From positions 96,001 through 160,000 of the forward strand of contig JAJREF010000005.1 in assembly GCA_047459655.1 (NCBI GenBank): a DNA stretch of 64,000 bases, given 5' to 3'. The notes below the pieces were generated by a model, which was not told where the DNA came from, searched no databases, and was given only the letters and a program-made list of their open reading frames with translations. Source of the stretch: Rhabdochlamydiaceae bacterium (lineage in GTDB: Bacteria > Chlamydiota > Chlamydiia > Chlamydiales > Rhabdochlamydiaceae). Numbering within the stretch: position 1 is the first letter of the stretch; each line of letters begins with the position of its first letter. This document shows, piece after piece, positions 5,711-61,652 of this stretch. The position numbers and the translations under genes were made by a program.

Positions 5711-5876
5711 TAAGGAACCTCTGGACAAGTCATTTCCCGAATTTGCTGCCAATTTTTGCGAATACTAGATTTTTCCACCCGCTAACATTTTGCATGTTAG
5801 CTGCGCTTTCCAAAATCGTCGTCTTCGAAAAATTGATCAGCAATCTCCGACAAAGCACTTGTCCAGGGGTTCCTTA
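5711..5876. mobile_element. Palindromic MITE-like element, family A copy 1
   Basis: TIR AGGAACCTCTGGACAAGT...ACTTGTCCAGGGGTTCCT, TA on both sides; near-identical copy at 7897-8064. Confidence 0.9.
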
Positions 5877-6043
5877 TTGAGCCTATATTTTAAGATTTCC
5901 CATTAGTTTCTGGCTTTTTGAAAATCAGATTGTTGAGTGGGTACCTGGATGATGTCTACGATCGAAAAATACCAAGATTCCGTTGCCTCATCATACAGGC
6001 GGCGTATTTTGTAGTCTTCGAATAGGATCAGGTCATTTTCCAT
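5876..6043 (-). pseudogene. Bro-N / antirepressor-like gene 5' remnant
   Basis: Hand translation MENDLILFEDYKIRRLYDEATESWYFSIVDIIQVPTQQSDFQKARN*WEILKYRL; internal stop; cut off at MITE A1. Confidence 0.7.
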
Positions 6044-6202
6044 AGATTGGATTCTAAATAGCGCTCACCAGTATAGATTCGATGAGTAATCCCTTTCAAA
6101 GAAAAGTCTGTGTCCATGGGCAAAAGTCCAGCAATTACGAATGAAGAACCAATACGAGAGAGGTTTTCTGTCCCAGCCCTAAAGTTCGGGGTTTCCGCGC
6201 TG

Positions 6203-7756
6203 TCAATGGGATGAGCGATTCCAGAATCCATGAAGCCCAACCGGGATGGCATAGGGAGCTTCAGCTCTTGCCACTTCTTGCATCGTGCGAGCATCCAAGA
6301 TCAACAAAAAGGAGGTGTGGGTGACTAGGTCCAACACGACGGATAAGACAACGCCATCGTCTTCATCTTGACCGCCGGGTCGCGGAGCAAAGATCGGCTC
6401 GCCCGGAAAGCAGCCGGCTTTTTCCCATTTTTGGGAAGTTTTTGCATTCACATCGATTTTATACAGGGGGCGGATATCGTTGGTGGAGTTGGGAAATTCA
6501 GCATCTATCGCATAGCAATACTGGTATTCGTGGGCGACCCTGTCTGCCCGGACTCGTGGCATTTCCAGGGGATTATCGAAGATTATTTCTTTCGATAGCG
6601 TTTGCGTGGGCATATCAATTGTAAAGCGCTCTAATTTTTTTTCCCTTGCTGCTAAAATTCTCTTTTCATCGGTGATGGTTTCTGCAATCACGCCTATCGC
6701 ATCGGCATTTGCTTCTGTTACGATATCGATGAAAATTTCTCCATCTTTGTCATAGGCATTTACGTGGTGGAACGAAAAGAAGGGGTCTCCTTTGATTTTG
6801 GCAATGAGCTTGCCTGTTGCGCGCTCTGTCACATAAAAATTTGTTCCTCTTTCAGGCTGCCATTTATAATTGAAAATGAACGGTTTTGCATGGGTTGCGA
6901 TATCCATAGGGTTCACAACAAAAGGGAATTCCACCAGAATTTGATAGTGTTCGGTCAGCGCAAAGCTGTGCATGTAAGCGGGAAGATCAACGGGGATTTT
7001 ATTCACGACTTCGCGCATTTTTGAATGGTCTTGCATTTTCCAAATGACGTAGGAGCTTTGGGGGCCAAATTCGATCAAGTAGTTGAATGTCTCTCCAGAT
7101 GCAAGATCGTGTTGCGCGTGGGCCGATTCCCAAATCCGTGATTTGGGAAGTTCATCTTTATACTCAAAATTTCCGAGCGTGGCGAGTGTCTTTGGATCAA
7201 AGACAACGGGTAGTGGTGTTTCTGTAAGTGCGACCATCATGTCGCCATAATCTTGAATGGTGACAGAAGCAGATTCGATGTTTTGCATTTCTTTAGGAAT
7301 GAAGTGGGAAACTTGATTCTTGAATAAGACGGGGCAGGGGTCTTGAGCAAATCCTGAAAAGTCCAGGCTCTTTTCCTTCACCATGAGGTAGTAGCGCTCA
7401 CAGCGCAGAAAGCGGTTGCTGTAGAGAACCTTCTCTGGTGTAAACTCAAAAGCGTGGAGCATGGCAAGGCCATCGAACCAACATACGCGATTTTTTCCTC
7501 CTACGGTGAATTTTGCGGGTCCGTTTCTTAATAGAGTTCCTGATAGCCAAGACGGGATGGTTCCCTGTATTGGGCAAGAGGTGCGCTCGGCTTCGCTATC
7601 TAGATCGAAGAGAAGGTGTTTGTTGTAAAATTTATATATTGATTTAGCGGTGTCTGGTTGCGAGCTACAGCTACCCAGCAGGAAAAAAGAAAAAGTGGAG
7701 CTTTTTTGATCATGCGCATCAAGTTTTGTTATATCCATGGTTTCGGCCAAAATCAA
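6203..7756 (-). CDS. Carotenoid/stilbene cleavage oxygenase (RPE65 family)
   Basis: GTIPSWLSGTLLRNGP, WFDGLAMLH, four iron-ligand His motifs (SAHAQ, YMHSF, FHHVNAYD, GLHGFW), GEPIFAPRPG..EDDG. Confidence 0.93.
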   Translation of the reverse strand: MILAETMDITKLDAHDQKSSTFSFFLLGSCSSQPDTAKSIYKFYNKHLLFDLDSEAERTSCPIQGTIPSWLSGTLLRNGPAKFTVGGKNRVCWFDGLAMLHAFEFTPEKVLYSNRFLRCERYYLMVKEKSLDFSGFAQDPCPVLFKNQVSHFIPKEMQNIESASVTIQDYGDMMVALTETPLPVVFDPKTLATLGNFEYKDELPKSRIWESAHAQHDLASGETFNYLIEFGPQSSYVIWKMQDHSKMREVVNKIPVDLPAYMHSFALTEHYQILVEFPFVVNPMDIATHAKPFIFNYKWQPERGTNFYVTERATGKLIAKIKGDPFFSFHHVNAYDKDGEIFIDIVTEANADAIGVIAETITDEKRILAAREKKLERFTIDMPTQTLSKEIIFDNPLEMPRVRADRVAHEYQYCYAIDAEFPNSTNDIRPLYKIDVNAKTSQKWEKAGCFPGEPIFAPRPGGQDEDDGVVLSVVLDLVTHTSFLLILDARTMQEVARAEAPYAIPVGLHGFWNRSSH

Positions 7757-60145: not shown

Positions 60146-61188
60146 GAAGGTTTTAGTATCAAGGTTCTCTTTTATATAAGAGAATACTTCGCCCTCGCTA
60201 TCCCAGCCTGTATCTTTGTAGTTGGCTAATCCGGCAGGCAAGAGAGCTTCAGTGATGGCTCTCATTCTGTCCTTTGGCTCATACGCATTCCAACTGTTTC
60301 TAATAATTGCTAGGGTGTCTGAGCTCAATTTTTGTTCTTTTATGAGCTTTAAAATAAAGCATAAGTTTTTATGGTTAAGTAGTAACTCTTTTGGTACCGC
60401 GGAAGGACGACCTGTCGATATGGCATAGTTGGGATCTATTCCTATTTCTAACAAGTTTTTAGCAACTTCATATTTGTTGGGAGCTGAGGTGTTAATGATA
60501 GCCCAAAGCAGTGATAATTCTGGATGATTTTTTCTACGGTCTGATAGTCTATCTAGGACTTTGCAAGCAGACTCAAGTCCCCACGATTCTTTTAACTCTG
60601 TTGCAGCAGTTAAGATTGTATCCTAAGGAATAATCCATGAAGAATTATTCAAAAAATAAACTCTGATAATGAAAGCTGATGTTTCATGAATTCTGTAGGC
60701 GGGGCGTCTTTCCTTTCCACCATAGAGAACTCCTCTTCTTCAATAATAGAAGGCTGTTCTGTAGGCGCAGCATTAGTGACAAAATTTCCGCTAATTACGC
60801 CCCATACTGAATCGAGGGCTGTACGTAGTAGTCCTGTATTTTGTGGGGTTTCTTTATCAGTTGCTCGAGTCTGATTAGGTCGGAAAATTTGTTCATATTT
60901 TTTCTTGATTAGTGCACAACACTCTTTCACTTCTTGTTTGAGCGTAGCAATCTCTGCTTCTATTCCAGAGGTCTTACTTGAGGAATTGGCTTGTTGTGGT
61001 GAGGGAATGAATAGGGAAATCTTATTTTGCAACTCACCTAGCCTTATTTCGAGATCGCTAATATTTGTTACATCTTTTCTTTCTTGCCTAAGAGAAGCGG
61101 TCTCAAGTTCTGTTTTGATCTTAGCTAATTCTGCTCTGCACCAGTCTACGTTTGAAGTCAAATTTGTTATATGACTCATAATATTCAC
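60131..61188 (-). CDS. Orphan coiled-coil protein (probably one frameshifted gene; effector-like)
   Basis: ORFs 60649-61188 and 60131-60454 with coding-like intervening sequence; one ankyrin-like turn (LLWAII..LLEIGIDPN). Confidence 0.55.
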
Positions 61189-61478
61189 CTATTATTAAAT
61201 ATTTCTTTAATTATACCGCGTTTTGCTTGGAAATTCAAATTAATTTTACTACATAATGTGCGCATTATTTTTCCATAACACGTTAATTGTGAGCATGTTA
61301 AAGTGTTTTTAAGGTTGTTGGAATCACTGCAAGCCTTTGTAAATAAAGAGCTTGTGTACGCTATTTTTGTAGCCTTGGGAGTCTCTATATATAGAGAGGA
61401 GGAGTGCTTCTAGGTCTGGGTATTCAGGTTTATGGGAAATTTTATTGACAGGGTATTCAGAAATCTATATTCACTGAT

Positions 61479-61652
61479 TTATAACTCACTTACGCAAAAA
61501 GGATGGCTCATGGACTGTTTGAAAGCTGTTGATAAATCGAATTGCAGAAAATGGGTAGTATTGAATGAAATACAACCCAATTTCTGCAATTCGATTTTCA
61601 ACGCTTTGAAACAGTCCATGAGCCATCCTTTTTGCGTAAGGTGAGTTTATAA
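61479..61652. repeat. Near-perfect 174-bp palindromic element (type F)
   Basis: CTTACGCAAAAAGGATGGCTCATGGACTGTTT...AAACAGTCCATGAGCCATCCTTTTTGCGTAAG; inner AATCGAATTGCAGAAA..TTTCTGCAATTCGATT. Confidence 0.92.

Follow-up and report, generated by a model that had tools for sequence, protein, structure and literature searches.

Introduction

Several short palindromic repeats of bacteria, namely RUP (with IS630-Spn1), Correia, ERIC, and YPAL, are described as MITEs whose ends match those of insertion sequences (IS) (PMC2229807, PMC3184786, PMC10969869); YPAL is about 168 bp long (PMC3184786). In the account given by PMC2229807, RUP was, as of 2007, the one exception among bacterial hairpin repeats whose moving enzyme was for the most part unidentified. 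MITEs that have only a TIR in common can differ inside (bioRxiv 2024.01.18.576219); chlamydiae do not appear in the main text of that preprint, whose supplements may list the elements described here, and the main text of PMC9723776 mentions neither MITEs nor palindromes.

The window analyzed here is a stretch of 64,000 nucleotides (G000:C5:96001-160000) from a 1.61-Mb chlamydial genome assembled in five contigs and 81.6% complete; lake-water sequencing runs contain sequence of this genome, and no RNA run was among the runs listed. A first-pass annotation had suspected that a multi-family set of such elements is undescribed in chlamydiae, and literature searches indeed found no such description, nor one of the exchange of ends proposed below. 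The elements are real, multicopy, and mobile. With a probability of roughly 0.7, we read them as MITEs of ~160-170 bp made of a palindromic core and 15-18-bp IS-matched ends, which would be moved in trans by DDE transposases, the cores being older passengers that gain new ends.

Elements in the window and in the genome

A sequence check found all ten listed elements and remnants where the annotation had placed them; its list of remnants, correct as far as it went, lacked an eleventh at 55654-55699. In window coordinates, the features are:

5714..5873, family A copy A1, 160 bp; IS5-type ends, flanks TTAA/TTAT
7900..8061, family A copy A2, 162 bp; TTAA duplication
27444..27606, family D copy, 163 bp; class II core (81 bits), TAA duplication
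36080..36242, family B copy B1, 163 bp; 5-bp duplication AATTT
45446..45599, family B copy B2, 154 bp, decayed; flanks match at 3/5
45758..45920, family C copy, 163 bp; decayed at the left end, duplication ATTCC (5 bp)
47798..47815, lone 18-nt A/IS5-type end between two TTAA, as read from the sequence
51386..51521, family E copy, 136 bp; class III core, 2-bp duplication AG
55312..55401, chimeric remnant in which B ends enclose part of an A arm (about 55339-55367)
55654..55699, H-type remnant
61484..61647, family F copy, 164 bp; class II core (53 bits), IS701-type ends, TTATA duplication

The left TAA of the D copy is the stop codon of ORF 26970-27443, and the E copy is shorter than a 169-bp form in another genome (G128). 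As annotated, the window elements (136-164 bp, with inverted ends) contain no transposase, and a scan of 20 window ORFs revealed no mobilizing enzyme. Folding into a single long hairpin was also borne out, DNA folding against 200 shuffles giving z of -19.9 for D, -6.9 for A1, and only -3.3 for B2. An Rfam search of the window returned only a tRNA, with no family matching any element.

Genome-wide BLASTN gave 84 loci for A, 20 for B, 16 for C, 9 for D, and 29 each for E and F, while 90 shuffled queries gave 0 hits. Many further repeat families beyond A-F emerged from a de novo scan; end-paired copies, 150 in total, were obtained for 21 of the 22 seed end types tested, several of which are related to one another. 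All seed hits together occupy 30.8 kb, or 1.9% of the genome, in 235 merged loci. A strict length rule was abandoned, as short forms are multicopy too (F, 51 bp, four copies; M, 70 bp, five; P, 94 bp, three). Family A was present in one of 40 relatives, a genome of another genus (G006, 87%), and in neither same-genus genome.

Only six of the 150 elements lie inside ORFs of at least 120 aa, versus 62.5% under random placement, and 33 of 134 stop-codon-facing element ends are within 10 nt of a stop. The annotation had advised looking for in-frame insertions, and these are rare: one of the six ORF-internal elements was confirmed against relatives, and among class II elements with enough flank 3/70 are in open frames. 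A family I element (G000:C3:173201-173366, L307) adds about 56 codons in frame to mfd, an insert lacking from the G001 and G003 homologues, which align to either side of it. The elements can be said to add rare in-frame protein loops, as in mfd. In G001 (L382), a related core is in frame in another long ORF and encodes a similar peptide.

Target duplications and empty sites

Family A had been annotated as TA-flanked, a reading that must be abandoned: A runs from GG to CC, and 38 of 64 copies are flanked by a 4-bp duplication (mismatched flanks predict 17.8), which is TTAA in 24 of the 38. Duplications of 5 bp were found in 5/6 B (control 0.0), 6/13 C (0.1), and 5/14 F copies (0.2), and of 4 bp in 7/15 copies of family J (control 0.4). 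Those of E (2 bp) and D (3 bp) were read from window flanks and empty sites. Families D, M, P, G, and W have 3-bp T(A/T)A-like flanks, and because their target is fixed, the duplication control is weak for all five; the genome-wide count for D was 3/4 against a control of 3.0. TA flanks are confined to two non-window families, I and N. A TA target and IS630 origin for A-F was rejected on the duplications (A, 4 bp; B, C, and F, 5 bp; D, 3 bp; E, AG).

Comparison with same-genus relatives, another check that had been suggested, showed D, E, F, and B2 to be absent from syntenic sites. The D site holds a single TAA in both G002 and G001, and the F site in G002 one TTATA; also in G002, E is absent from its syntenic site and B2 from the syntenic spacer. 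The A1/A2 and B1 sites are rearranged too far in G001 and G002 to count as empty, and sequencing-run DNA contigs across window 4500-12000 contained no clean empty A site.

Probable partner insertion sequences

A search for IS with the same terminal inverted repeats identified end-matched elements for A, B/C, E, F, and I; none was found for D. The right end of a resident IS5 element (G000:C3:6644-7825; NF033581, 295 bits, cut-off 140; flanks TTAA/TTTA) matches that of A at 17/18 nt. Its gene is frameshifted in the genome, and a second copy is internally deleted. Two runs from one sample (X2 and X3) contain a 1189-bp version with seven more bases at the place of the frameshift; with A copies alongside, its depth is 29-42 versus ~7 for unique window DNA, depth being a rough guide to copy number.

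The B/C end matches a truncated IS5 gene of G182 at its left end (NF033581, 155.5 bits, cut-off 140). E ends cap 883-948-bp elements of the IS5 family (NF033580, 167 bits, cut-off 110) with 2-bp duplications in G161, G106, G159, G089, and G191; we label these IS427-like from their size, split ORF, and 2-bp duplication. F ends cap 1138-1181-bp IS701 elements (NF049921, 352 bits, cut-off 250), mostly with 5-bp duplications, in G177, G161, and G220. Both ends of I match an IS630 in G005 (NF033545, 135 bits, cut-off 100). Counting the window genome each time, the B/C end occurs in 14/301 phylum genomes, the F end in 35/301 (control 0), the E end in 16/201, the I end in 21/201, and the D end in 8/201.

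No partner was present in 14 non-own loci with D ends or in three with G ends. Searches of this genome (81.6% complete, as noted) turned up neither the E nor the F partner and gave no DDE_3 match for an IS630 and no match to PF13586 or PF13737. In metagenomes, a search for IS630 genes next to I ends yielded one locus, which had no transposase, and plasmid searches with the B, C, and F ends and the whole of D returned nothing meaningful. A cluster at G000:C3:3061-9654 comprises IS4, IS5/IS1182-like (GGGCCTG ends, TAA flanks), and IS5 elements and a 1.47-kb 10-copy repeat; its GGG-ended element is a candidate mover of D, M, P, and W.

For A, E, F, and I, the partner has the same ends and the same duplication length (IS5, 4 bp; small IS5-type, 2 bp; IS701, 5 bp; IS630, TA), and for B and C, whose IS5-type partner is truncated, there is end identity only. 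The annotation had taken a terminus common to A, B, and C, with E similar, as the mark of one superfamily; the ends are instead those of different IS families, with duplications of 4, 5, 2, and 3 bp. What stands is its likening of the elements to MITEs and Rickettsia palindromic elements (RPE), non-autonomous and multicopy; the single superfamily with a common terminus does not. With IS5, IS701, and IS630 partners named and their ends matched, mobility can be put to a direct test.

Matches to the partner IS are near exact for 15-18 nt and random beyond, so simple deletion within an IS does not account for the elements. Interior identity to the partner is 0.38-0.55 versus 0.47±0.04 for random sequence (the E value comes from a copy with one extra base; the window E copy fits the 16-nt pattern exactly), and a class II core profile scored at most 1.1 bits on five IS. 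An origin as IS deletion-derivative MITEs was rejected on this random-level identity and lack of homology to the parent IS.

Palindromic cores

There are at least five interiors: those of A, B, and C, class II (D, F, G, I, L, M, N, and O), and class III (E, H, J, and T). Cores were compared using nhmmer profiles and arm counts. D and F have one core in common, class II, which A, B, C, and E do not have; the class II profile scored 37-92 bits against the eight families of that class (shuffled maximum 1.2). The class II pattern occurs in 17/61 relatives, with up to about 68 copies in G032 and 0-1 hits for the reversed control. Scanning one genome per species gave at least 120 pattern loci; among the loci listed, 112 match the profile, which was itself built largely from those same loci. 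Titles were available for 80 of the loci listed: 50 carry a chlamydial label, 21 are from unnamed bacteria, and nine are from other sources, four of the nine failing the profile. Long hairpins form in 84 of the 106 analyzable matches listed; most of these 84 measure 160-172 bp, and they have many end types. Four true class II elements (L104, L106, L108, and L123) are in records labelled Acidobacteriota or Verrucomicrobiae, and either these are mislabelled bins or the elements have spread outside the chlamydiae. None of 120 loci from a viral scan matched the core profile.

Across 63 non-redundant class II cores, identity of the variable stem is 0.85 between the two arms of an element, a figure inflated by filtering out cores with arm identity <0.6, and 0.60 between elements. 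Three asymmetries between the arms are fixed in about 92% of these 63 variants while the stems co-vary. Before the A-run, there is G on one arm and C on the other in 58/63 cores; in 56 of these, the G arm but not the other has an extra T; and a TA/TT mismatch beside the tip is kept in 58/63. Note that the scan pattern required the G and T on one arm only, leaving the state of the other arm unselected. The tip mismatch can be on either side relative to the G arm (35 vs 19), and the centre has therefore flipped with the mismatch retained. Selection on the folded form, either single-stranded DNA or RNA, probably maintains the fixed mismatches; as to their role, recognition of a folded strand and shielding of a long palindrome from cleavage are our guesses.

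Concerted changes of both arms were seen in 17 cells for F versus about 0.7 expected and in 21 for A versus 5.3, which fits arm-to-arm copying and also selection for pairing. Two other ideas on the core were discarded. DNA bending by 10.5-bp A-tract phasing gave z of -0.8 for class II, -1.0 for A/B/C, and 0.6 for H/J/T/K, and homology among the sequences accounts for a phasing peak at 11.5-12 bp. Coding selection on the class II core is weak (open frames 0.52 vs 0.31±0.07), with none in 36/63.

Proposed exchange of ends

The class II core is found with IS701, IS630, and at least three other end types across the Chlamydiota. Two elements, L059 and L117, have core stems that are 85% alike and ends that are unrelated. 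Conversely, the same ends enclose other interiors in five F-ended, two D-ended, and one E-ended element, and five of seven F-ended elements lack the class II core. The C core profile scored 20.6 bits on an E-ended element (shuffled maximum 4.1), and that of A scored 17.3 bits on a B-ended one (shuffled maximum 6.6). Among 39 typed elements, 22 share their end type with the element of nearest core, versus 9.1 when shuffled (24/63 were untypable, and related copies are not independent in these counts). Cores thus mostly stay with their ends, and swaps must be occasional. Nested and chimeric copies, such as that at window 55312-55401, demonstrate that ends do land inside other elements.

In the mechanism we propose, the DDE transposase of the IS with matching ends would act in trans to move each family, as ends and duplications indicate, and the cores would be older passengers and not remnants of these IS. 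An IS end, or the end of another MITE, would insert into one arm of a core, and arm-to-arm copying would then place the newly captured end onto the opposite arm. If cores do switch transposase families, MITEs would be long-lived parasites of the whole IS pool, beyond IS debris. We tentatively extend this to a phylum-wide "universal passenger", although the odds are somewhat against it: a self-correcting core might outlive any transposase by capturing and copying IS ends, its mismatches being read by a host or transposition factor. If true, such a rule would account for RPE, ERIC, YPAL, and similar orphan palindromic repeats. The ends of family K may resemble those of RPE, and some ends may resemble those of RPE, ERIC, and Correia.

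The strongest competing account, which we nevertheless consider unlikely, is that of ordinary MITEs without end exchange, either descended from a single ancestor for each core, with ends that drifted one base at a time, both arms in step, until another transposase recognized them, or, family by family, decayed deletion products of unsampled IS. It would accommodate the above-chance agreement between core similarity and end type, and both arms do change together; true deletion derivatives also exist, in the form of an 80-bp IS630 mini-element in G005 and a 377-bp IS5 derivative in G182. However, neither drift nor decay readily yields partner matches that are near exact over 15-18 nt and random beyond, one core carried by unrelated IS701, IS5, and IS630 ends, or identical F ends on several unrelated interiors. 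Much less probable again is that the hairpin is the substrate of a structure-reading enzyme, either HUH/Y1 acting on single-stranded DNA or a retro-element acting on RNA, with the IS-like ends incidental. Fixed mismatches and a bulge within a co-varying stem are what such an enzyme might read, and a group II intron has inserted twice behind hairpins inside elements, but duplication length tracks end type, in A, E, F, and I with the same value as in the partner IS, and HUH transposases are not known to duplicate their target. Regulatory RNAs or sites of the host at fixed positions, the single-copy and positionally conserved elements that the first-pass annotation had named as an alternative for C-F, would suit the strong folding and the proximity of ends to stop codons but are refuted as an origin by multicopy loci, target duplications, empty syntenic sites, and the patchy spread of family A, though single copies may have secondary effects.

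Associated features

Two identical 691-nt group II introns without a long ORF (G000:C3:40903-41593, L511, and G000:C5:319182-319872; Rfam RF02001 and RF01998) each lie directly behind a hairpin inside a K or C-type element, and a third, diverged intron (C1:699634-701565) ends beside an A arm. These introns appear to target hairpins and may be group IIC-like.

Between the two A copies of the window is a gene of the RPE65/carotenoid-oxygenase family (6203-7756). The block containing it is unmatched at the syntenic site in G001 and G002 and is possibly MITE-flanked cargo. Two further blocks, 45720-47820 (~2.1 kb) and 54470-55690 (~1.2 kb), are absent from syntenic G002 sites; each holds one ORF without a Pfam match plus element copies or remnants. 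Duplicated genes at 24019-26189, with a spacing of about 1065 bp, are 90% alike and also have no Pfam match. All three sequencing runs have an extra base at 10274 and at 10787, and the assembly thus contains indel errors; the split RecC, UvrD/RecB-like, and methyltransferase genes (near 47816-49281, 51330-53749, and 55701-58669) may be artefacts.

Comparison with known systems

As they are described in the sources cited above, RUP, Correia, ERIC, and YPAL resemble the present elements in being 100-200 bp long, with terminal inverted repeats, a target duplication, and a long stem-loop; in being mostly intergenic; and in having a partner transposase that is inferred from end similarity. Unlike them, about 20 end types coexist here in one 1.6-Mb genome, the ends come from the IS5, IS701, and IS630 families with 2-5-bp duplications, and the interiors are unrelated to the partner IS and common to several end types.

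Rickettsia palindromic elements likewise form several families of whole-length hairpins in an intracellular bacterium (PMC10969869, PMC2229807) and, like the family I element in mfd, insert in frame in housekeeping genes. In-frame copies are rare here (3/70 for class II), whereas a review among these sources puts nearly half of the RPEs of three families in frame; the elements here are also longer and have partner IS that can be named, and the RPE duplication is listed there as unknown. Coxiella QMITE2, compared by description only, is a 150-190-bp hairpin MITE of an intracellular bacterium with, in contrast to these elements, 7-11-nt direct repeats (PMC5896051). REP/REPIN sequences with RAYT are similarly palindromes with conserved unpaired bases, but REPs are described as 20-40 bp and GTAG/CGTC-tagged (PMC3733652), whereas these elements have DDE-type ends and target duplications; an identity with REP/REPIN was rejected on the latter. 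By each feature examined, the present elements are MITEs, a type already known; what is unusual is their apparent modular build, a core plus exchangeable IS ends.
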